64,000 nucleotides of DNA from a virus (taxonomy: Duplodnaviria; Caudoviricetes), in IMG/VR virus record IMGVR_UViG_3300028048_000052, positions 111,155 through 175,154 of that record; one strand, given 5' to 3'. The number at the start of each line of letters is the position of its first letter. Position 1 is the first letter of the stretch. Shown here one piece after another: positions 12,566 through 27,831 of this stretch. The translations under genes were made by a program, and so were the position numbers. The notes under the pieces are model-generated. The model had not been told where the DNA came from. It made no database searches and saw only the letters and a program-made list of their open reading frames with translations.

Positions 12566-13672
12566 ATGGCAGGATATGATAAATTAGAAGTAAGAGAAAA
12601 ATTAGAAATAGAAGATATTTATAGTTTACTTCTTGAGTTTGGAGGTGAACCAGAATATTCTTCTTTTGGCATTATTTCAAGAACGATTTGTCATAATCCT
12701 GCGCATGAAGGAAGTCGCAAATTATACTATTATGAAAATAGTGATTTGTTTAGGTGTTATACTGATTGTGGCGATTCGTTTGACATATTTGAATTAGTCC
12801 AAAAGGTTAGTAGAATCCAATGGCATAAAGAAACAGATTTAAATGGGGCAATATATTATGTTGCGGTTAAATTTGGAATTGCGCCGAATTTTGGAACTGA
12901 TGATGATAACGTAGTTAATGCCGAAGATTGGGAAGCATTTGAAAAATATTCTCATATTAAAGATATTGAAATAAAAGATTTAAAAGTAACTCTTGAAGAA
13001 TATGATGATAGTATTTTAGATAAATTGAGATATGATTTAAAATTAACCCCATGGTTAAAAGAGCATATGACGCAAGAGGTTCTTGACAGCGCAAGGATTG
13101 GCTATTGGCTCGGTGGAGACCAGATAACAATTCCACATTATGATAAAGATGGTAGATTTGTTGGATTGCGTGGTAGAACCATGTGTAAAGATGAAGCCAT
13201 GGCTTATGGAAAATATCGTCCTATAAAAATTATGGACACTCAATATAATCATGCATTAAGTATGAATTTATATAATCTTAATTTTAGTAAAGATAATATA
13301 AAGAAAATGGGAAAAGCAATTATCTTTGAAAGTGAGAAAAGTTGTCTTATTTATAGAAGTTATTTTGGAAAAGATGCTGATATAAGTGTAGCGTGTTGTG
13401 GTAGTAATATCTCAGCATATCAAATTCAAATGCTTTTGGATGCTGGCGCAAAAGAAATTATAGTTGCATTTGATCGTGATTTTGAGGTCAAAGGCGATAA
13501 AACATATATGGCTCAAATTAATAAATATAAGAGGATATATAATAAATATCATATTTATTGCAATATTTCATTTATTTTTGATAAAAATAATTTATTACCA
13601 ATAAAAGCGAGTCCAATAGATAATGGTAAAGAAATATTTTTACAATTATTTAATGAAAGAATCTTTTTATAG
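12566..13672 (+). CDS. dnaG: DnaG-type primase
   Basis: Zn-binding CHN...RCYTDCG, IPHYD...GLRGR, TOPRIM IFESEKS and AFDRD. Confidence 0.8.
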   Translation: MAGYDKLEVREKLEIEDIYSLLLEFGGEPEYSSFGIISRTICHNPAHEGSRKLYYYENSDLFRCYTDCGDSFDIFELVQKVSRIQWHKETDLNGAIYYVAVKFGIAPNFGTDDDNVVNAEDWEAFEKYSHIKDIEIKDLKVTLEEYDDSILDKLRYDLKLTPWLKEHMTQEVLDSARIGYWLGGDQITIPHYDKDGRFVGLRGRTMCKDEAMAYGKYRPIKIMDTQYNHALSMNLYNLNFSKDNIKKMGKAIIFESEKSCLIYRSYFGKDADISVACCGSNISAYQIQMLLDAGAKEIIVAFDRDFEVKGDKTYMAQINKYKRIYNKYHIYCNISFIFDKNNLLPIKASPIDNGKEIFLQLFNERIFL

Positions 13673-13683
13673 GAGGTATCTTA

Positions 13684-14424
13684 GTGCCAAAATTAATTGA
13701 TTTGACCGGGAAAAAATTTGGAAAACTTATTGTAAAAGAAAGAGCACCAAATAAAAATAACCAAGTATGTTGATTATGTAAATGTGATTGCGGGAATGAA
13801 GTAATTGTCACAAGAAGAGAATTATTAACTGGACATACTAAATCGTGTGGGTGTTATCGTAAAGAGATTACCGCAAAAAGAAATAAAGAAATAAAACCTA
13901 AAAAATTAGATGGGTTAAGATTTGGCAAATTAACTGTTTTAAAGCCAACTGAATTACGAGATACAAATGGCGCAATAATTTGAGAGTGTGTTTGTGATTG
14001 TGGAACACATACAATGGTTCGTGGAAATTTATTAGTTAATGGAATGATACAGAGTTGTGGATGTGTAAAATCACAAGGAGAACAAAAAATTATTGACATT
14101 TTAAAAAAATATGATATAATTTATGAAAAAGAAAAAACTTTTGAAACATGCCGTTATCCAGAAACAAATTTCTTATGTCGTTTTGATTTTTATGTTAATA
14201 ATAAATATTTAATAGAATTTGATGGTGAACAACATTTTAAAAAAAGTAAATATAATAATAGTTGAAATACAGAACAACATTTAAAAGAAACTAAAATGCA
14301 TGATGAATATAAAAATAATTGGTGTAAAGAAAATAATATCCCATTAATTAGAATTCCTTACAACCATTTAAATGAATTAAAAATAGAAGATTTAATGTTA
14401 GAAACAAGTAAATTTGTTATTTAA
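13684..14424 (+). CDS. Free-standing homing endonuclease, Cys-rich repeats + Vsr/DUF559-like nuclease (3 TGA=Trp)
   Basis: AGGAGG RBS + GTG; DLTGKKFGKL, TGA-LCKCDCG, TGA-ECVCDCG, RFDFY, IEFDGEQH; same architecture as 6127-6825. Confidence 0.8.
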
Positions 14425-16173: not shown

Positions 16174-16254
16174 ACCGTCGGCTATGTCTATTGGACATAA
16201 CCAGTTGATTTACATTTATGTTTTTTATATAATATATAAAGGAGAAAGATATAT

Positions 16255-16770
16255 ATGATTATAAAATGTAAATGTACTGTTTGCGGGAAAGAATTTGACG
16301 CATTAAAAAGTACTGCAAAATATTGTAGTAAAGAGTGTATGAATAAAGCGCGCAGAATTAGGGTGGCAGAAGAAAAAAATAATCCTAAAAAAAGAAATGA
16401 AAACGGGATGACAGAAAAAACATGCTTGCTTTGTGGGAAACCGTTTTCTCCTAAAACCGCTGCGGCGAATAATAGAAGCTGTTGCTATGAATGTATGCCA
16501 GATGGAGTTCAATTGAGACGTGGAGATTTTTTAGCAAAAATTAAAAAAATACGCGGAGGGCAATGTGAGCGATGCGGTTATCATACTTCTATAAAAGCGC
16601 TTGAATTTCACCATTTAGATCCAAACAAAAAAGATTTTACTATTAGTAATGATCATTTTAAATTAGAAGAGGCTTTAGAAGAAAGTAAAAAATGCGTATT
16701 GTTATGCGCAAATTGCCATAGAGAACTTCATGATGATGTTTGGAAAATTGAAGAATTAGGATATAAATAA
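16255..16770 (+). CDS. HNH endonuclease with N-terminal Zn fingers
   Basis: CERCG...LEFHHLDP...LLCANCHRELH. Confidence 0.85.
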   Translation: MIIKCKCTVCGKEFDALKSTAKYCSKECMNKARRIRVAEEKNNPKKRNENGMTEKTCLLCGKPFSPKTAAANNRSCCYECMPDGVQLRRGDFLAKIKKIRGGQCERCGYHTSIKALEFHHLDPNKKDFTISNDHFKLEEALEESKKCVLLCANCHRELHDDVWKIEELGYK

Positions 16771-16786
16771 GAAAGGGGGCGATATA

Positions 16787-17958
16787 ATGGAACTTACAGT
16801 AAAACAACAGGAAGCTCTTACGCTTGCTGTTTCTCGCTATGTCAATGGAGAAGCATACACATGTATTAGCGGGTATGCTGGAGTTGGTTAGGTAAAACAA
16901 CATTGATTAGTTTCATTATTTCCGCTCTTGGATTACAACCATGGGAAGTTTGCTATATTGCCTATACCGGTAAGGCAGCGCTGGTATTAAAAAGCAAGGG
17001 ATGCGAAAATGCCATGACAGCACATAGATTGTTATATATTTCTCATCCAAAAGCAGATGGAACTTTCTTTCATATGCCACGAAGACCTTTACCACCTTAT
17101 AAAATAATTGTATGTGATGAGATATCAATGTTACCAAAAGATATGTGGGAGCTTCTTTTATCTCATCATATTCATGTTATTGCGCTTGGAGATCCGGCCC
17201 AATTACCTCCTATCACAGAAGATAATGGGGTATTGGCAAATCCGCATATATTTTTGGATGAAATCGTACGTCAAGCCCAAGATAATGAAATCATTAAATT
17301 GAGCATGGATATTCGTGAAGGAAAACCTTTACAATTATTCAATGGTAACCAAGTTAAAGTAATTGATAAAAAAGATTTAAAATCGGGAATGTATACTTGG
17401 GCTGATCAAATTATTTGTGCTAAAAATGAAACACGACGCCAAATAAATGAGTATATGCGTGAAATGACATTGGGTATGAAAACACCCGACCCAGTGGAAG
17501 GTGATAAAGTCATCTGTTTAAAAAACGATTGGGATAGTATGAACGCTTATGGAGATATGTTAGTTAATGGCACCATTGGAACTATTTCTTATATTCGATA
17601 TGATGATAATAATAAATATTTAAAACCCCATGTTGAATGGGATTTATTACCAGATGGTTATATCCCATCTGAGTGTGCTGAAGATCCATATTTTAGAGAT
17701 TTGAATATTGACTATAAATTATTAACAACTGGTGAACCAACAGTTACACAAAAAAATTTTAGAAAATTTCCTCAAATTTGGAAACCAAAAGAATTTGATT
17801 ATGGTTATTGTATTACCTGTTGGAAAGCGCAGGGTGATCAGTATAATAAAGTATTATTATTTGAAGAGGGATTCCCTTTTGAGCCAGAAGAGCATAGAAG
17901 ATATCTCTATACTGGTATTACAAGAGCAGTTGAAAAATTGGTAGTCGTAAGGAAATAA
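16787..17958 (+). CDS. RecD2/Dda-like SF1B helicase interrupted in Walker A by a 5-nt insert (388 aa if bypassed)
   Basis: RBS + ATG 16787 gives ...ISGYAGVG then TAG. Skipping 16889-16893 gives GYAGVGKTTL. Downstream AYTGKAA, DEISM, GDPAQL, TCWKAQG, YTGITRA are intact. Confidence 0.8.
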
Positions 17959-17975
17959 CTTTGGGCATTTTAAGA

Positions 17976-18004
17976 TTGACTATTTTATAAAAAAATGGTA
18001 TAAT
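17976..18004 (+). promoter_or_regulatory. Near-consensus sigma-A promoter
   Basis: TTGACT-17 nt-TATAAT with TG. Confidence 0.8.
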
Positions 18005-18033
18005 AAATAGAGTAAGAAAGAGTAGAAAAACAT

Positions 18034-19398
18034 ATGAAAAATGAATATGGTTATCTTCCAAATGAGACGCCATCGTTAGGTAAATTACTTTTATATGCTT
18101 TACAGCAGGTAATTGTAATGTTTCCAGCGACAGTTACCGTAGCATTGATTACTGGTTTCCAAGTATCAACAACGATATTCGCGTCAGGTTTGGCGACTTT
18201 GTGTTTTATTTTAATTACACAAAAGAAAATTCCTTTGTACTACGGCTCAAGTTTTGCTTATTTATCTGCTGTTAGCGCAATGGTTATGGCAGAAGGAACT
18301 GCTGATCAAATTGCAAGTTGGCAGGCAACAGGAATTTTACCGACTGAATTAATTTCAAAAGCACAATTTGGAATTATTATGTCTGGATTTGTATCAATTG
18401 CGGCTGGATTGCTTGTAAAGAAATTTGGTAAAGACTCTGTTGAAAAAGTTCTCCCGGCTTCAATTACTGGTCCAGTATCTATGGTCATTGGTCTTACGTT
18501 AGCTGGAAACGCTTTAAGTGATGCTATTTCAGCTGGTAATACCGCATGGTGCATTGTCGCATTAATTACTTTAATTTCTACTATGATTTATTCAAGATAT
18601 TTAAAAGGATTATTGGGACAATTACCATTATTATTGGGTGCAGTTACTGGTTGTATTGTAGCTGGATTATTCGCATTATTTGGAATTAATTTATTTAGAA
18701 GTATTCCAACAGAAGCACTTAATTCACTTTGGTCTTTTGGCCCATTTGCAATTCCAGCTTTCAGTTTACCGAAATATAGTTGGGCGGCTTTAATTGGAAT
18801 TATGCCAATTGCTATTGCCACTATTCCAGAGTCAACTGCGCATGTTTATCAGTTAGATCTTTATGTGCAAGATATTGCAAAAAAGAAAGGTGTTGAAGCT
18901 GATAGAATTGAAAATCTATTAGATAAAAATTTAATTGGAGATGGTTTGTGCGACATGATTTCTGGACTTATCGGTGGTCCAGCTGGAACAAATTATGGCG
19001 AAAATATTTCCACAATGGCGATTACGAGAGTATTTAGTATTCCTGTGTTAATTGCCGCTAGTATTATTGCAATGATAATTTCTTGTTTTACGCCTTTAAT
19101 TCAAGGAATTTATGCTATTCCGTTAGCTGTAATTGGTGGTTTAGAGATTTATCTCTTTGGAGCAATCGCAGCGCAAGGTATGGCAATTATGATAGATAAA
19201 AAAGTAGATATGTTTGATAGTAAAAATATTGCTGTTATTGCCACAATTGTTATTGTTGGTATTGGTGGACAATATGCATTTGGTGGAAATATTCCATTGT
19301 TTGGAATGAATATTCCTTGCGTTGCTGGGGCAGCGATTGCTGGTATTCTAATTAATGCTTTATTATCGATAAAGAAAAAAGGAGTAATGAATGAATAA
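18034..19398 (+). CDS. NCS2/NAT family uracil-xanthine permease (UraA/PyrP-like)
   Basis: Multi-TM; LQQV..MF, YGSSFAY, signature GTNYGENIST. Confidence 0.85.
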   Translation: MKNEYGYLPNETPSLGKLLLYALQQVIVMFPATVTVALITGFQVSTTIFASGLATLCFILITQKKIPLYYGSSFAYLSAVSAMVMAEGTADQIASWQATGILPTELISKAQFGIIMSGFVSIAAGLLVKKFGKDSVEKVLPASITGPVSMVIGLTLAGNALSDAISAGNTAWCIVALITLISTMIYSRYLKGLLGQLPLLLGAVTGCIVAGLFALFGINLFRSIPTEALNSLWSFGPFAIPAFSLPKYSWAALIGIMPIAIATIPESTAHVYQLDLYVQDIAKKKGVEADRIENLLDKNLIGDGLCDMISGLIGGPAGTNYGENISTMAITRVFSIPVLIAASIIAMIISCFTPLIQGIYAIPLAVIGGLEIYLFGAIAAQGMAIMIDKKVDMFDSKNIAVIATIVIVGIGGQYAFGGNIPLFGMNIPCVAGAAIAGILINALLSIKKKGVMNE

Positions 19399-20755
19399 TC
19401 TTTTAGAGAAATGGTTTCATTTGAAAGAGAATGGCACTACATTAACAACCGAGTTAATTGCTGGTCTCACTACTTTTGCGGCAATGGCATATATTATTGT
19501 CGTAAATCCTGCTACATTGGCTGGGTTTGGAGAACCCGGAGCGATGTTTATTGCTACAATCTTTGCATCTGCGCTTAGTACGGCTCTGCTTGGTTTAATC
19601 GCTAATATCCCATACGCCGCGGCGCCGGGACTTGGGTTAAACAACACCGCCGCCAACATCCTTGCTGGCTATACAGCTTACCTCGTAGGACTTAGCCCAG
19701 AAGGCATTATCGCAGTTGTCTTGCTCTCTGGTTTAATTAATGTATTAATTACAGTTACAAATATTCGTAAGCATATTATTAAAGCAATTCCAGAGTCATT
19801 ACAGAATGCAATTAGTGCGGGTATTGGTATGTTTATTATCTATATCGCATTATGCAATGTTGGTTTGGTTCATTTCACTTTCGGTATTCCTGCTATTAGC
19901 ACGACAATTGATTTTAAAGTATTATTAGTATTCATTGTTGGCTTATGTTTAACGGTTTATCTCTTATTAAAAAATGTCAATGGCGCAATCTTAATCGGTA
20001 TTGTTGTTGCTACTCTCTTAGGTATTCCTCTTGGAGTAACTAATTTCAGCACTGGTTATAGTATTGGTGAAGCATTTACTGCTTATGGCCATTGGTTTGG
20101 AACTCCTATTACAAAGGGTCTGCCAGAATTATTTAGTGATTTAAGAAATATCATTCCTATCTTGATTGGTATTTTATCCTTCTCGTTGTCTGATATTTTT
20201 GATACAATTGGTACATTCATTGGTACTGGTAAAGTTAGTGGTATCTTTAATGACGCTGATTTAGAAGATATGGAAAGCGGTTCTGGTTTTGATTCAAAAA
20301 TGGATAAAGCATTATTCGCAGATGCAATTGCTACTCCTATTGGTGCTTTACTCGGCACATCTTCAACTACTACTTATGTTGAATCTGCGGCTGGTATCGG
20401 CGCTGGCGGTCGTACAGGATTAACCTCTATCGTTGTAGCATTATGCTTCTTATTATCATTACCATTCGCTGGTTTCGTTAGTGGTATCCCATCAGCGGCA
20501 ACAGCTCCTGCATTAATCGTAGTTGGTGTTATGATGATGGCATCATTAAGAGAGATTAATTGGAATGATTTAGAAGAAGCAATCCCTGCAATGTGTGCAA
20601 GCGTGCCTATGGCATTAACCTATGGTATTACAAATGGTATTATGTTAGGTTTCTGGGCATACACGTTTGTAAAACTTTGTAAAGGAAAGATAAAAGAAGT
20701 CCATCCAATCATTTTGGTAAGTGATATCTTGTTTATCTTAAACTACCTAATGTAA
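19391..20755 (+). CDS. NCS2 AzgA-like purine permease (PbuG/PbuO-like)
   Basis: ELIAGLTTFAAMAYIIVVNP, APGLGLN, DIFDTIGT, TTYVESAAGIGAGGRTGLT. Confidence 0.9.
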   Translation: MNNLLEKWFHLKENGTTLTTELIAGLTTFAAMAYIIVVNPATLAGFGEPGAMFIATIFASALSTALLGLIANIPYAAAPGLGLNNTAANILAGYTAYLVGLSPEGIIAVVLLSGLINVLITVTNIRKHIIKAIPESLQNAISAGIGMFIIYIALCNVGLVHFTFGIPAISTTIDFKVLLVFIVGLCLTVYLLLKNVNGAILIGIVVATLLGIPLGVTNFSTGYSIGEAFTAYGHWFGTPITKGLPELFSDLRNIIPILIGILSFSLSDIFDTIGTFIGTGKVSGIFNDADLEDMESGSGFDSKMDKALFADAIATPIGALLGTSSTTTYVESAAGIGAGGRTGLTSIVVALCFLLSLPFAGFVSGIPSAATAPALIVVGVMMMASLREINWNDLEEAIPAMCASVPMALTYGITNGIMLGFWAYTFVKLCKGKIKEVHPIILVSDILFILNYLM

Positions 20756-20759
20756 AAAG

Positions 20760-20798
20760 AATGGGTGGGGCTTAGGGCTCCACCCATTGATTTTTTTT
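20760..20798 (+). terminator. Intrinsic terminator overlapping the dnaE promoter
   Basis: AATGGGTGGGGC...GCTCCACCCATT hairpin followed by a T run. Confidence 0.75.
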
Positions 20799-20815
20799 AT
20801 AAAATATGATATAAT
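20787..20815 (+). promoter_or_regulatory. Sigma-A type promoter with extended -10
   Basis: TTGATT-17 nt-TATAAT with TG. Confidence 0.7.
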
Positions 20816-20856
20816 ATAAATGTAAAAATAGGAAGAAAGTGAGGTGATATAGAATA

Positions 20857-23800
20857 ATGAGAACATATTTTGGAGCACATAACCATACTCATTATTCCTA
20901 GGTAAGTCCAATTTGCGACTAATTGATTGTATCAATAAACCAAAGGATTTAATTAATAAAGCAATAGAGTTGGGGTTATCTGGTATCGCTATAACTGATC
21001 ATGAAAGTTTATCCGCAGGGATGGAAGTTAATCAATATGCAAAAAAGATTCACGAAAAAAATCCTAATTTTGTTATTGCATTAGGTAATGAAATTTATTT
21101 AACAGATGATAGAAGTAGTGGGCAGAAATATTATCATTTTATTATAACAGCAAAAAATAAAAGAGGTTATAGAGCATTAAAAGAATTAAGTTCAATCGCT
21201 TGGTATAATATGTATAGTGATAGAGGTATGGAAAGAGTTCCAACTTTAAAAAGCGAATTGAAAGAGGTAATGAAAAATTATAAAGGTGATGTAATAGCAC
21301 AAACTGCTTGTATTGGTGGTGAATTATCTCAATTAATTCTTGAAATGGAACATGCGAGAGAAATTAATGATAAAGAGAATGCGAATACATCTTATTTAAA
21401 GATTAGAGAATTTATTGATTTTTGTATTGATGTATTCGGCAAAGATGATTTTTTTATTGAGTGTGCGCCAGCGAATAATCCCGACCAGATTAAAGTAAAC
21501 AAGAAATTAATTCAAATAGCGAAAGTTTATGGATTAAGAATGATATTTGCGACAGACGCACATTATTTAAGACCAGAAGATAGAAGTGTTCATAAAGCAT
21601 TTTTAAATTCAAAAGATGGCGAAAGAGAAGTTGATGAATTTTATCAATATTCATATTTAATGAATAGTGATGAAGTTGAGGAATTATTAAGTTATAGTTT
21701 TGAAAAGAAAGATATAGATTGGTTATTTGAAAATACTTTATATTTACAAAATAAGATAGAAAATTATAGTTTAGAAAAACATCAAGATATTCCAGAAGTA
21801 AAAGTTAAAGATTATCCAAAAGTAAACAAGAAAGAAGAATATGCGGTTTTATCAAGTTTATATAACTCTGATAATATTCAAGAAAGATATTGGATTAATC
21901 AATGTGAAGAAGCATTAATTCAAAAAGGTTTAGATAAAGATAAAAGGTATTGGGATAGATTAGAAGAAGAAGCAACAACAAAAAGAATTGTTGGTGAGAA
22001 ACTTCAAACTTGTATGTTTAGTTATCCAAATACTTTACAACACTATATTGATTTGTTTTGGCGTTGTGGTTCAACGGTTGGCGCAGGAAGAGGTTCTGCG
22101 TGTAGTGGATTAAATCATTATCTGTTGGGTATAACTCAGTTGGATCCGATTAAATGGAATTTGCCGTTTTGGAGATATTTGAATCCAGAACGAGTTGAAT
22201 TAGGTGATATTGATTTGGATTTGGCGCCAAGTAGATTACAAACAATATTTGAAGAAATTAGAAAAGAAAGGGGAGAACTTGGTTTAGTTCAAGTTTGTAC
22301 TTTTGGAACAGAAGGTACAAAATCAGCAATTCAAACAGCTTGTAGAGGTTATAGAAGTGTTGATTATCCCGATGGTATAGATGTAGATGAAGCACAATAT
22401 TTATCATCGTTAATTCCAGTAGAAAGAGGATTTCAGTGGAGTATTAATGATGTTATAAATGGAGATGCGGAAAAAGGCAGAGTGCCTGTAACTCAATTTA
22501 TAAATGAGATTGAACAGTATCCGGGATTATTAGATATTGTCAAAGGCATTGAAGGATTAGTAAGTAGAAGAGGAAGTCATGCGTCGGGTGTAATTTTATT
22601 TGATGAAAATATTTATGATGATGCAGCGATTATGAGGACTCCATCTGGGGCGATTGTAACTCAGTGGGATTTACATATGCAAGAAGCCGCAGGTTCAGTT
22701 AAATATGATTTCTTATTAACATCAGTTCAAGATATTATTATTGAAACGATTAATCTTTTACAGAAAGATGGTAAGATTGAAAAAGATTTAACTTTAAGAG
22801 AAATATATAATAAGTATTTACATCCAGAAGTATTACCGCAAGATGATAATAAAATGTGGGATGCATTAGCAAATGGAACTGTTATAAATTGTTTCCAATT
22901 TGATAGTGCAGTTGGTTCTCAGGCAGCGAAAAAGATTAGACCTCATACGCCAATGGAAATGGCGGATGCTAATGGTTTAATGAGATTAATGGCAGCCGAG
23001 AAAGGCGCAGAAACTCCATTAGATAAATATGTAAGATTTAAAAATAATATTAATTTATGGTATCAAGAGATGAAGAAATGGGGATTAACCGAAGAAGAAA
23101 TGAAAACGGTTGAACCATATTTTAAATCATCTTATGGGGTACCACCATCACAAGAACAATTGATGATGATGTTAATGGATAAAAATATTTGCGGATTTGA
23201 TTTAAAAGAAGCAAACGCGGCGAGAAAAATCGTTGGTAAAAAACAGATGGATAAGATTCCAGAGCTTCATCAAAAAGTATTAGACCAAGCCAAGAGTAAA
23301 GCGTTAGGTAAATATATTTGGGCACAAGGTGTTGGCCCGCAGATGGGTTATTCATTTAGTATTATTCATGCATTAGCATATTCATTTGTTGGTATGCAAA
23401 CTTTATATTTAGCGACTCATTTTAATCCAATTTATTGGAATACGGCGTGTTTGATTGTTGACAGTGGGTCGTTAGAAGAAAGTAGTGATAGCACAAATTA
23501 TAGAAAGATAGCGATAGCGATTGGTAAAATGAGAAAAGCTGGTATTAATATTAGTTTAGTTGATATTAATAAGTCAGGTTTTGGATTTGAACCAGATGCA
23601 GAAAATAATAGAGTGTTATTTGGATTAAAAGCGGTAATGGGTGTTGGCGATGAAGTCACGAATAAAATTATTGAGAATAGACCTTATAGTTCAGTAAATG
23701 ATTTTATTGAAAAAGTTAATCCAAATAGGACAGCGATGGTTGCATTAATAAAAGGTGGAGCGTTTGATGTATTAGAGCCAGATAGAATCAAATGTATGAA

Positions 23801-24716
23801 AGATTATATTTGGGAAACTTGTGATAAGAAAAAGAGATTAACGATGCAGAATTTAGCGGCGTTAATGAAATATAATTTGTTCCCAAAGAATAAATATAAA
23901 CAAGAAAAAAGAGTTTATGAATTTACAAGATATTTAAAAGCAATGTGTAAGTTAGATAAAGAAACTTACAAACTTGATGACAGATGTATTAAATTCTTAA
24001 CTGAAATTGAAAGTGATGATTTAATAGAACAGAATGATAAGAATGAGTTTATATTAAAAGCGAAAGATTGGGATAAGGTTTATCAATTTAATATAGATAG
24101 TTTTAGAGATTATATTAATAGCCATAAAGATGAATTATTAGATAAGTTAAATAATATTATCTTCAATGAAGATATGGAAAAATATGCGAAAGGAAATATT
24201 TCATCTTGGGAAATGGAAACATTATGTTTCTATTATCACGATCATGAATTAATAAATGTTAATAATGATAAATATGGTTTAGTTGATTTCTTTGATTTAG
24301 ATACAGAACCAGAAGTGGAAAGAACTTATACAACAAAAACTGGGCATAAAGGAAATATATTTAAGTTATCAAAGATTGCGGGAACCTGTATCGCGAAAGA
24401 TAAAATAAGGTCAACTGTATCATTATTAACGGTTAATGGTGTTGTTGATGTTAAATTTAGAAAAGAATATTTTAGTTTATTTGACAAACAAATATCTGAA
24501 AGAATGCCAGATGGGACGAAACATGTGGTTGAAAAATCTTGGTTTAATAGAGGCCAGATGATTATAGTTCAAGGATTTAGAAGTGAAGATAATTTTATTC
24601 CAAGAAAATATGGAAATCAAGGTCATCAGTTATACAGAATAACAAATATTGATAAAGATAATAATTTAATGATTCAAACAGAAAGATATAATGGCGGTTT
24701 TGATGAAGAAAATTAA
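20857..24716 (+). CDS. dnaE: DNA polymerase III alpha (family C) interrupted in the PHP motif by an 11-nt insert (1282 aa if bypassed)
   Basis: GAGGTG RBS + ATG 20857 gives MRTYFGAHNHTHYS then TAG. Skipping 20899-20909 gives HNHTHYS-NLRLIDC. Downstream AITDHE, GAGRGS, DIDLD, HASGV, KYDFL, YSFSIIHA are intact. Confidence 0.9.
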
Positions 24717-24798: not shown

Positions 24799-27700
24799 AT
24801 GATGAAATATGTGATTAAACGAGATGGGCGAAGAAAGGATTTCAATGAGGCAAAAATTGAAGCGGCTATTTTAAAAGCATTTATTGCGGTTGACGGTGAA
24901 GCAACAGATTACGCAAAAGAGAAAGCAAAAAATATAGCTGATTATATTAATAATTTAGAACAAGAAGAATTAACAGTTGAGGAAATCCAAGATTTAGTAG
25001 AAAAAGGATTAATGAGCTGTAAAAGAAAAGATGTTGCAAAAGCCTATATTCTTTATAGAGAAGAAAGAAGCAAAGAAAGACAAAGAAAAACAAGATTAAT
25101 GGGCGTTATTAAAGAAAAATTAGATGCCTCTAATGTTGTTAATCAAAATGCTAATGTAGATGAGCACTCTTTCGGCGGAAGAAAAGGTGAAGCAACAAAC
25201 GAACTGATGAAGCAGTACGCCCTTGATTATTGCGTATCTGAATTATCAAGAAATAATCATTTAAATAATGAAATCTATATTCATGATTTAGATAGTTATG
25301 CTGTTGGTATGCATAATTGTCTTACAATCCCATTTGATAAATTATTAGCAGAAGGATTTAATACAAGACAAACTGATGTGCGCCCTGCTAGCAGCGTAAA
25401 TACTGCGTTTCAATTGGTAGCTGTAATTTTTCAATTACAATCATTACAACAATTTGGCGGTGTTAGTGCTAGTCATTTAGATTGGACTATGGTTCCATAT
25501 GTCAGAAAGAGTTTCTTTAAACATTGGCGAGATGGGCATAAATTTTTATTAAATGATAATGATGCAGATAACTTAATATTTTTTGCAGATAAGTCAATTG
25601 ATGATGAATATTATAAAGATGGTGCTTATGAATATGCTATGGCTATGACACAAAGAGAGTTAGACCAAGCTGTTGAAGGCATGTATCATAATCTTAATAC
25701 CCTTCAATCAAGAAGTGGTAATCAATTACCTTTTACCTCAATTAACTATGGTACTTGCACATTGCCAGAAGGAAGAATGGTTATTAAATCATTATTAGAT
25801 AAATCTATTGAAGGCGTTGGCAAAGTTAGAAAAACTCCAATTTTCCCTTGTGGAATTTTCCAATGCATGAAAGGCGTTAATAGGAAACCGGGAGATCCTA
25901 ACTACGATTTATTCCAGTTAGCCTTAAAATCAACTGCTAAGAGATTATATCCAAATTATGCCAATATTGATTGGAGCAATAACGCTGGATATGATATAAA
26001 TGATCCAAAAACTTATTTTAGCACGATGGGTAAGCGAAACTTAGCTCATCTAAAATCTTTTGAACCACGCTCGTGGGTGTTCGCTTAAAGCGAGCTAACG
26101 GTTAGGCCCCTCTGGGGTGAGACCGTGCTAAGATTTATCATAATACTCATATTGGAGAAAATATGTGAGTATATAAAATTACAAATATTCAAAATAATAA
26201 AGTTTATATTGGTCAAACAATAAGACCAATAGAGCAAAGATTTAATCGTCATATAAATGATGCATTAAACAATATATTAGATACTCATTTTGCAAGAGCG
26301 ATTAGAAAATATGGCAAAAACAATTTCAAAATTGAAATTATTGACATGGCTCAAACGCAAGATGAATTAAATAAAAAAGAACAATATTGAATTAAATATT
26401 ATAATTCTACTATTGATGGTTATAATGAAACGGATGCTATTTCTAAATGCGGTGGTAATACTTATAAAAGTAAAACTTTAAAAGAAATGGCAGATATAGA
26501 AGAAAAAATACGAAAAACAAAAATAGGAAAATTAAATCCTATGGCTCGTAAAATTAAAAGAATAGATGTTAATACCAATGAATTTGAAATTTATGATACG
26601 ATAATTGCTTGTGCAAAAGCTTGTGGTATAAAAAATGGGAAAACATCTATTTCGCAAAGATTAAATGGGAATATAAAAACACCCTATAAAGATAAATGAA
26701 TATTTGAGTATTATGATAAATAAAGTGTACAGACTATCCCTGATGAATGTAAGGGAGTAGGGGTGGAGATAAGCACCACTCCGAAGCGGAAGACTACTTA
26801 ATAGTAGAAGATATAGTCGGTACCAATGGTAACATTGGAAAAATACGTGCAGAACGGCAAATGGCGCTGATATTAATGCAGAACCGGGCACAAACCCACA
26901 AACAAAAGATGGTAGGGGAAATATATGCCCTGTTACCATTATTTTACCAACATTAGCAATGGAAGCAAAAGAAATTTCCGGAGATACTGTTGATAATTTC
27001 TTTGATATTTTAGAAAGAAAACTTGTTGAAGCAAAAGATATGCTTATCGAAAGGTATGAATATATCTGTTCTCAAAGTCCAGAAAGTGCAAAGTTTATGT
27101 ATGAAAATGGTACAATGTTAGGATACCACCCAGAAGAAGGAATTCGAAGTGCATTAAAGCACGGTACTCTTGCTCTTGGTCAATTGGGCTTGGCTGAAAC
27201 TTTACAAATTTTAATTGGTAAAGATCATACAACAAAAGAAGGCATGGATTTAGCAAAAGAAATTGAGGAATTGTTCCAAAAGAGATGTGCAGAATTTAAA
27301 CAAAAATATCATTTAAATATTGGTGTTTATTATACTCCTGCTGAAAACTTATGCTATACAGCAATGAAAAAGTTTAAAGCAAAATATGGGGAGATTCCAA
27401 ATGTAAGTGATAGGGAATATTTTACAAATTCAATTCATGTTCCTGTTTGGGTAAAGATTGACCCATTTACTAAAATTGATATTGAAAGTCAATTAACTGG
27501 CTATTCAAATGCTGGTTGTATCACTTATGTTGAATTAGAAGGCACGGCTGGTAATAACCTTGACGCATTAGAACAGTTAGTTAATTATGCCATGGATAAA
27601 GATATCCCTTATTTCGCAATCAATGTTCCAAATGATACTTGTCTTGACTGTGGTTATACCGGCGAATTTAATGATAAGTGTCCTGTTTGCGGAAGCACCC

Positions 27701-27831
27701 ATATCCAACAGTTAAGAAGGGTTACAGGGTACTTAACTGGTAATTATACAACGGCATTTAATCTTGGAAAACAAGCCGAGGTTCATGATAGAGTAAAACA
27801 CTCAGAGCAACTCTCAGATTGGAGACGATAA
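24799..27831 (+). CDS. nrdD: Anaerobic (class III) ribonucleotide reductase with ATP cone, two exons (24799-26031 + 26848-27831, 738 aa)
   Basis: VIKRDG ATP cone; IYIHDLD; splicing restores the catalytic TMG|CRT; PAENL, YFTNS, RRVTGYL glycyl-radical motif. Confidence 0.92.
26032..26847 (+). mobile_element. Group I intron in nrdD
   Basis: Exon ends ...GGU and intron ends ...ACG; P7 elements CAGACTA (~26730) and GAAGATATAGTCG (~26806); removal restores the frame. Confidence 0.88.
26163..26723 (+). CDS. Intron-encoded GIY-YIG homing endonuclease (3 TGA=Trp, first at codon 2)
   Basis: GGAG RBS; M-TGA-VYKITNIQNNKVYIGQT, RAIRKYG, EQY-TGA-IKYYNS, GYN. Confidence 0.8.

Follow-up and report, generated by a model that had tools for sequence, protein, structure and literature searches.

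Short stop-containing gaps in the helicase and dnaE genes of a TGA-recoding phage: probable ribosomal hopping and an association with HNH homing endonucleases

The window analysed here is a 64,000-nt stretch of phage DNA (Duplodnaviria; Caudoviricetes), the last 64 kb of the single-contig IMG/VR virus record IMGVR_UViG_3300028048_000052 (175,154 bp, 33% G+C). Two of its replication genes, one for a Dda/RecD-like helicase and the other dnaE, are each interrupted within the coding sequence of a catalytic motif by a few nucleotides that start with a stop codon and end with a copy of the codon preceding this stop. We propose that both genes are probably read by programmed ribosomal stop-hopping (short-range bypassing) across scars of homing endonucleases or inserts conferring immunity to them. 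The ribosomal hop, taken separately, appears likely from the DNA sequence.

In the helicase gene, the zero frame ends GGA GTT GGT TAG, and the downstream frame reads GGT AAA ACA ACA TTG from position 16891. The 5-nt gap lies inside the Walker A motif, and its removal yields the canonical GYAGVG-KTTLIS. In dnaE, an 11-nt gap lies inside the PHP motif, and its removal yields HNHTHYS-NLRLID; the TAG is followed here by GTAAG, the codons TCC and AAT, and a TTG (20913-15). At both sites, the take-off codon (the last one before the stop) is identical to the landing codon that forms the last 3 nt of the gap (GGT..GGT in the helicase, TCC..TCC in dnaE). The AGGT/AAG bases of the dnaE gap are Shine-Dalgarno-like, and a GGAG is present at 16880-16883, 2 nt 5' of the helicase take-off codon. 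The latter codon, the stop and the landing codon are predicted to lie in the 5' arm of a hairpin (Table 1), which was matched by 4 of 200 shuffled sequences. The closest relative, IMG/VR contig 3300021387_002356 (96-98% protein identity), has uninterrupted versions of both the helicase gene (locus L004) and dnaE (locus L001), and the dnaE gap is also absent from 94 other homologues.

Gaps of the same type recur in more distant relatives. A survey of helicase genes in IMG/VR and metagenome contigs covered 176 loci, of which 172 were scorable and 4 were not; 132 were intact and 20 interrupted, 20 more having been flagged that proved to be distant homologues with offset alignments and no gap. The interruptions consist of 5-, 6-, 7- or 8-nt inserts directly 3' of the Ala codon in G-Y-A/G-x-G-K (slashes mark gap borders), 19 of which open with TAA, TGA or TAG. 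For dnaE, a survey of 112 loci plus a pattern scan revealed gaps at four nearby codons: 4 nt after HN, 5 and 11 nt after HNH, 5, 7, 7, 8, 10, 11 and 14 nt after HNHTxYS (codon 14 of the window's gene, with six alleles besides its own), and 1 nt after SNxRLL. The last of these, present about 60 nt into the gene in L136 and L175, reads TTA CTT TGA CTG TAT; the inserted T creates the TGA, and skipping it restores RLL-DCIN. In a distant TAG-recoding phage of 174 kb (G001), whose helicase is 49% identical to that of the window, both genes are interrupted in a different manner, by GCA/TAAGAGTA/GGT in Walker A and by CAT/TAAAT/ACT in the PHP motif. The dnaE gene of this phage (62.5-69 kb, L024-L026) additionally contains two inserts of about 1.2 kb, which divide its homology into three blocks; they are inteins or introns and include matches to GIY-YIG endonucleases. 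As to cultured phages in GenBank, the 60 best DnaE matches (of 400) all start at residues 1-8, and these 60 are thus uninterrupted.

Three near-identical pairs of loci have gaps that differ only by the exchange of one stop for another (TGACC/TAACC, TGACT/TAACT and TAGGCT/TAAGCT), and more than one metagenome contains the identical gapped locus, both for L186 and L187 and for the L246 group of 8 contigs, which come from gut or rumen samples. We considered the possibility that both interruptions in the window are sequencing or assembly artefacts, as its genome comes from a single metagenomic assembly. Yet differently built gaps recur across dozens of independent assemblies, and at both sites a stop and a copied codon stand inside a catalytic motif, surrounded by a patch of foreign sequence, which makes this explanation extremely improbable.

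Another possibility was that the genes are dead or dying, broken by nuclease activity or by random indels, their function being fulfilled by other enzymes or by fragments restarted at TTG. Dda-type helicases are dispensable in T4, and the exact junctions of the window are known from one assembly only, both of which would fit. However, the approximately 30 interrupted loci all keep full-length downstream frames. The ratio of non-synonymous to synonymous substitution rates (dN/dS) indicates purifying selection on both halves of the genes (0.03-0.15); in the window it amounts to 0.03 for the helicase body as compared with L004 and to 0.04-0.06 for the second part of dnaE as compared with L001. 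Furthermore, the N-terminal pieces are conserved as protein and retain their start codon and ribosome-binding site (RBS). With identical gapped loci occurring in different metagenomes as well, loss of function is very improbable.

To describe the architecture of the gaps, we assembled 28 distinct alleles, the two of the window and 26 others. Gap lengths are 1, 4, 5, 6, 7, 8, 10, 11 and 14 nt, which covers all three frame classes and includes three in-frame gaps. Of the 27 alleles whose gap has room for a stop, 26 have one immediately after the take-off codon (13 TAA, 9 TAG, 4 TGA); only L183 does not. Landing positions that are not fixed by the stop equal those of the take-off codon in 58 of 71 cases (binomial p ~3e-19), and the landing match is perfect in 10 of the 18 inserts of 6 nt or more, as against ~0.5 expected. 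The interiors of the gaps are rich in G, which makes up 19 of 39 bases (p = 5e-5), and display Shine-Dalgarno-like tracts such as UAGG, UAGUGGG and UAGAGGGG. Once the relatives are added, the design of codon, stop and same codon is far beyond chance.

A preliminary description of this stretch had noted that both sites read TAGGTAA with a TTG located 14 nt downstream of the initial T of TAG, and that both inserts are 2 mod 3 in length and lie in a catalytic motif. These sequence statements were confirmed, and its argument that the two breaks are not independent errors is supported: they share a recoding design and most likely require non-standard decoding. The element it had derived from them, TAGGTAA-NN-C-N-A-NN-TTG, is nonetheless absent from all 26 other alleles. 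In the window, TAGGTAA is no commoner than chance (12 occurrences as against 9.9 expected from shuffles), and in the helicase copy GGT is the landing codon and AA belongs to the following Lys codon. The TTG triplets are ordinary Leu codons, the corresponding residue being Leu (CTA) in L004 and Ile (ATC) in L001. Nor is 2 mod 3 a rule, because every frame class is represented among the gaps. The idea that AGGU pairs with the anti-Shine-Dalgarno sequence survives in a weaker form, through the G-rich gap interiors, while the rest of the shared-element reading was abandoned.

We hypothesized that these genes are translated as follows. The ribosome would decode GGU (helicase) or UCC (dnaE) as the take-off codon, upon which UAG, a true stop, would enter the A site; the peptidyl-tRNA would then unpair, the mRNA would slide by 5 or 11 nt, and the tRNA would re-pair with the identical landing codon, so that translation would resume at the next one. 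The products would comprise an intact Walker A motif (GYAGVG-KTT) and an intact PHP motif (HNHTHYS-NLR), with GYAGVGKTTLISF and HTHYSNLRLIDC as the predicted junction peptides. A hop is favoured because it is the only known process that predicts a zero-frame stop right behind the last sense codon, a gap whose 3' end copies this codon, gaps of any frame class and exact restoration of the protein. Hopping through re-pairing of the peptidyl-tRNA has been demonstrated for synthetic stop-hops and for T4 gene 60 (PMC5009743; bioRxiv 10.1101/2022.08.31.505936).

Other modes of decoding could be rejected. A -1 or +1 frameshift is contradicted by the lack of an X XXY YYZ site and by the -1 product (...WSWLGKT), which breaks Walker A. 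Moreover, L170, L171 and L172 have in-frame 6-nt helicase gaps (GCT TAG GCT, GCT TAA GCT and GCC TGA ACT), which are candidate natural in-frame stop-hops; these gaps, together with the occurrence of all three frame classes, mean that a plain frameshift cannot explain the set. If TAG were read through or reassigned, translation would meet additional stops within 5 to 30 codons and would not be in the frame of the downstream open reading frame (ORF). Restart at the TTG was dismissed since the product would lack the Walker A Lys (GKT); besides, the position of this codon is not conserved across relatives.

Removal at the RNA level was also considered, i.e. that 5 and 11 nt are cut from the mRNA by a micro-intron or by cleavage and religation with phage RNA-repair enzymes. 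Nucleotide-exact removal is indeed what the proteins require, and introns and nuclease genes abound in the genome. Yet splicing predicts neither an obligatory zero-frame stop immediately behind the last sense codon nor a gap whose 3' end copies this codon. A self-splicing or BHB-type intron was rejected in view of the size of the inserts and of the absence of any Rfam intron match in the region 12000-33000, and we know of no splicing system that removes 1 to 14 nt. RNA-level removal is therefore quite improbable.

A clue to the origin of the gaps came from the gene preceding the helicase, which encodes an HNH homing endonuclease on a segment that L004 lacks (Table 1); there, the stop of recJ is joined directly to the helicase start. 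The closest relative is devoid of the HNH gene and of both gaps. A tblastn search of all fetched loci found homologues of this HNH protein (54-67% identity) only in L088, L120, L127, L183, L186 and L187, in each case directly upstream of the helicase gene, and all six of these helicases are interrupted. The HNH gene thus lies beside 6 of the 20 interrupted helicases and none of the 132 intact ones (Fisher p = 2.5e-6), and with the window counted, Walker A is interrupted in 7 of 7 HNH-bearing loci. On the helicase tree, all six independent contrasts agree with this association (sign test p = 0.03). The 20 interrupted rows of this tree require 16 changes and the six HNH rows require 6, so that the interrupted state and the HNH gene both have a sporadic, mobile distribution.

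A second HNH family is found at dnaE in other phages: L254 and L261 have a 221-aa HNH gene, occupying 4157-4819 in L254, 20 nt upstream of the gapped gene. Their 10-nt allele, TCT/TAGTGGGTCT, exists in three states: with the HNH gene (L254 and L261), with its last 28 codons only (L255) and without it (five contigs). The dnaE gaps therefore outlive their nuclease genes. The alternative offered in the preliminary description, that the sites are the footprint of a mobile element, came close to the mark in view of these cassettes; it erred in supposing one single element, since at least two HNH families are involved, one at the helicase and one at dnaE.

Both gapped alleles of the window were recombined in from diverged donors, as divergent patches surround both gaps. 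The first 102 nt of the helicase gene are 67% identical to those of the relative, as compared with 88-96% just 3' of the gap; 27 of the 34 residues of part 1 are identical (79%), with a dN of 0.21 and saturated synonymous sites. In the dnaE patch, dS is 1.0-2.6, versus 0.195 for the remainder of the gene. The best match found for the helicase N-terminus was L085, which is uninterrupted and therefore uninformative as to its donor.

These findings suggested the following scenario. An HNH gene would land directly upstream of its target gene, and a small insertion into the best-conserved DNA, which encodes the motifs, would destroy the target of the nuclease; only the inserts that ribosomes can hop over would survive. 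The window's helicase is still accompanied by its HNH gene; the dnaE gap arrived on a recombination patch of about 230 bp. The gaps would accordingly be scars of HNH cassettes or immunity inserts. The immunity role is one that we infer from the association with HNH genes and from the precedent of T4 gene 60 and mobA discussed below.

We also weighed the possibility that the gaps serve regulation, the stop-hops tuning or timing the synthesis of replication enzymes by sensing release factors, in complement to a TGA-to-Trp switch, with the nucleases being incidental. The phage is a TGA recoder, because many of its late genes are open only if TGA is a sense codon; TGA is reassigned in its genome, TAG is not. 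In L005-L009 and L012, codon 7 of the helicase, a Gln codon (CAA or CAG) in others, is an in-frame TAG, indicating that the phage group holds both TAG-to-Gln and TGA-to-Trp recoders. In each code the stop used for the hop appears to be one that the phage itself still reads as a stop, as roughly gauged from 4-kb loci, which would suit a regulatory device. So would the sequence of the 1-nt dnaE gap in L136 and L175: CUU UGA C is literally the +1 frameshift site of the autoregulatory release factor 2 (RF2) gene (the helicase of L175 is intact). Helicase and dnaE gaps also co-occur in genomes (both in 6, helicase only in 12, dnaE only in 1, neither in ~90; Fisher p = 6e-5). However, a phylogeny-aware version of this test left only 3:0 pairs, which is not significant. 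The majority of relatives manage without a gap; the interruption is sporadic (16 changes) instead of clade-wide, as would be expected of a regulatory device, and it tracks HNH cassettes. All three stops are in use, which also fails to support the earlier proposal of a control layer specific for UAG and RF1. A regulatory function of the gaps is on balance unlikely.

Several observations weigh against stop-hopping over nuclease scars. No recognisable nuclease gene (Pfam, PHROGs) lies beside 13 of the 20 interrupted helicases, and none is adjacent to the window's dnaE or, by the same searches, to most gapped dnaE loci. The helicase gap of L183, GCC/CGGTG/GGT, is the only one without a stop, and an HNH gene lies upstream of it; the A-site codon would be CGG in this case, possibly acting as a rare 'hungry' codon. 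In several relatives the landing codon is an imperfect copy (GCA to GTA, CAT to AAT, GCC to ACT), and phylogenetic independence does not extend to all 28 alleles. Neither of the window's exact junctions turned up in another IMG/VR contig, so that both rest on one assembly. The dnaE site shows no significant fold (z = +0.35), and no strong stimulator was found there. Lastly, synthetic stop-hops reportedly proceed with an efficiency of ~1%, which looks low for a replicative polymerase.

Among known systems, the closest parallel is provided by T4 gene 60, which is decoded by translational bypassing within the mobA HNH homing-endonuclease cassette, as reported by Huang in 1988 and Bonocora in 2011. 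The likeness extends to the matched take-off and landing codons, the stop right after take-off and the Shine-Dalgarno-like tract in the gap, as well as to the HNH gene just upstream, a gap thought to be protective, a sporadic mobile distribution and the hit-and-run loss of the nuclease. In contrast to the 50-nt gap of gene 60, those of the window measure 5 and 11 nt (1-14 in relatives); they affect a helicase and DnaE instead of a topoisomerase, show no sequence homology and no topoisomerase context, and are diverse where T4 has one conserved cassette. As to the signals that assist bypassing in gene 60, no nascent-peptide signal was identified here, no search having been aimed at one, and only the helicase site offers a hint of a take-off hairpin. 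The window system is therefore an analogue of gene 60/mobA and not a member of that cassette family, which has been described by Manning and Atkins (bioRxiv 10.1101/2022.08.31.505936).

Synthetic +5 and +6 stop-hops were obtained in E. coli by Weiss, Dunn, Atkins and Gesteland in 1987, as cited in PMC5009743. They have the same arrangement of a codon, a stop and the same codon a few nt further on; the helicase GGU-UA-GGU corresponds to +5 and the in-frame gaps of relatives to +6. Unlike those engineered, low-efficiency hops, the present cases are natural and lie in replication genes under selection. According to that 2016 review (PMC5009743), short natural counterparts with matched codons had long been presumed, and in-frame stop-hops had yet to be seen in nature. 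The terminase gene of Streptomyces phage Hau3 is a candidate, with bench support, for the bypass of 10-nt (and 7-nt) blocks (PMC10732093). It also has short non-coding blocks, the need for an exact junction, a slow A-site codon as trigger and a landing codon nearby; in contrast to the stop and the HNH genes seen here, the bypass in Hau3 is triggered by UUA, a rare sense codon linked to host physiology, and involves no nuclease cassette.

In the RF2 gene prfB, 3 nt separate the Shine-Dalgarno sequence from the shift site. The window resembles this site in having a stop in the A site, a putative forward re-pairing of the P-site tRNA and a GGAG 2 nt before the helicase take-off codon; it differs by shifts of +5 and +11 onto non-overlapping codons, as opposed to +1. 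We saw no evidence at the window's sites for autoregulation as in prfB. The Byp elements of Magnusiomyces capitatus mitochondria, cited in PMC5009743, are similar in that they are short, mobile and numerous, interrupt coding sequences and are corrected by bypassing during translation. They differ in being mitochondrial and GC-clustered, and in lacking both the design of a stop plus a matched codon and a nuclease cassette. Byp elements are 27-55 nt long. In the literature, we found no paper describing short stop-hop gaps in these phage genes.

Natural bypassing is known so far from few systems, namely T4 gene 60 with its homologues and yeast mitochondria. The dozens of natural variants found here, with gaps ranging from 1 to 14 nt in two defined places, offer a ready-made mutational series on what a ribosome needs to hop. 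They also suggest that conflicts between phages and homing endonucleases may generally lead to tiny 'saviour' inserts in catalytic-motif DNA. In practical terms, gene callers will split or discard such helicase and polymerase genes, a pattern that pipelines annotating uncultured phages should be able to detect.

A broader proposal can be put forward tentatively, as a possibility that we regard as doubtful: minimal stop-hop elements (a codon, a stop, 0-11 nt and the same codon) might be a widespread and recurrently evolved means by which phages rescue essential replication genes after attack by homing endonucleases, with hopping efficient enough for a replicative polymerase. In these phages with recoded stop codons, altered termination machinery would then perhaps make ribosomes linger at the remaining stops, resulting in efficient hops. 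If this were true, a change of genetic code, selfish nucleases and translational bypassing would be joined in one system.

Table 1. Features in and around the interrupted helicase and dnaE genes (window coordinates)
Feature	Positions	Strand	Remarks
Segment of ~610 bp with HNH gene and promoter-like site	16174..16783	+	Promoter-like site 16205-16233 (TTGATT-17-TATAAT); segment absent from L004
HNH homing-endonuclease gene, 171 aa	16255..16770	+	Directly 5' of helicase; Pfam HNH, phrog_2255
Helicase ORF part 1, 34 codons (MELTV...GYAGVG)	16787..16888	+	ATG 16787; take-off GGT 16886-16888
Predicted hairpin	16868..16926	+	5' arm: take-off codon, stop and landing codon; -17.5 kcal/mol, z = -2.3
Helicase 5-nt coding gap (TAGGT)	16889..16893	+	Stop TAG 16889-91, landing GGT 16891-93; absent from L004
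Helicase ORF part 2 (KTTLIS...stop), Dda/RecD-like SF1	16894..17958	+	Pfam AAA_30, UvrD_C_2; phrog_325
Terminator upstream of dnaE	20760-20788		
Promoter-like site upstream of dnaE	20787-20815		
Foreign-sequence patch around dnaE gap, ~230 bp	20830..21060	+	79% identical to L001; flanks 97-99%
RBS of dnaE (GAGGTG)	20841-46		
dnaE ORF part 1, 14 codons (MRTYFGAHNHTHYS)	20857..20898	+	ATG 20857; take-off TCC 20896-20898
dnaE 11-nt coding gap (TAGGTAAGTCC)	20899..20909	+	Stop TAG 20899-901, landing TCC 20907-09
dnaE ORF part 2 (NLRLID...stop)	20910..24716	+	Rest of PHP domain, Pol III alpha core, finger domain, HhH motif

Genomes G000 and G001 were scanned for more hop sites without a gene caller, by means of matched codons, start-less ORFs, split high-scoring segment pairs in homology searches against four relatives, in-frame stop-hops and N-terminal truncations. 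These scans, which were swamped by antisense and junction noise, returned only the helicase (dnaE was seen by eye) and a frameshift in G001. The candidates at 15.7 kb and 60.2 kb of G000 and at 125.4 kb and 131.3 kb of G001 were rejected as antisense artefacts. The G001 frameshift, of 1 nt in an A-run (GAAAAAGA), affects a GIY-YIG endonuclease gene at ~23,700-23,800 and may reflect decay, a sequencing error or slippage.

The replication module of the window comprises, in this order, a primase gene, an HNH-like mobile ORF, recJ, the HNH gene, the helicase gene, two NCS2 permease genes, dnaE and nrdD. The two permeases, tandem 454-aa xanthine/uracil (NCS2) transporters encoded at 18034-20755, are unusual cargo for a phage; the pair is also present in the closest relative and is followed by the strong terminator listed in Table 1. 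The mobile ORF (13684-14424, with three in-frame TGA) lies in a 757-bp segment (13660-14416) between primase and recJ that is missing from the closest relative. It matches the HNH/homing-endonuclease PHROGs phrog_374, 559 and 9084 and resembles DNA-binding repeat modules, with no match in Pfam. Because homologues lie between helicase and dnaE in many relatives, we consider it to be another mobile gene. Finally, nrdD (24799-27831) is split by an 817-bp insert (~26031-26847), absent from the closest relative, which contains a GIY-YIG ORF (26163-26723, three TGA); the insert is intron-like, though Rfam gave no group I match at the gathering score.

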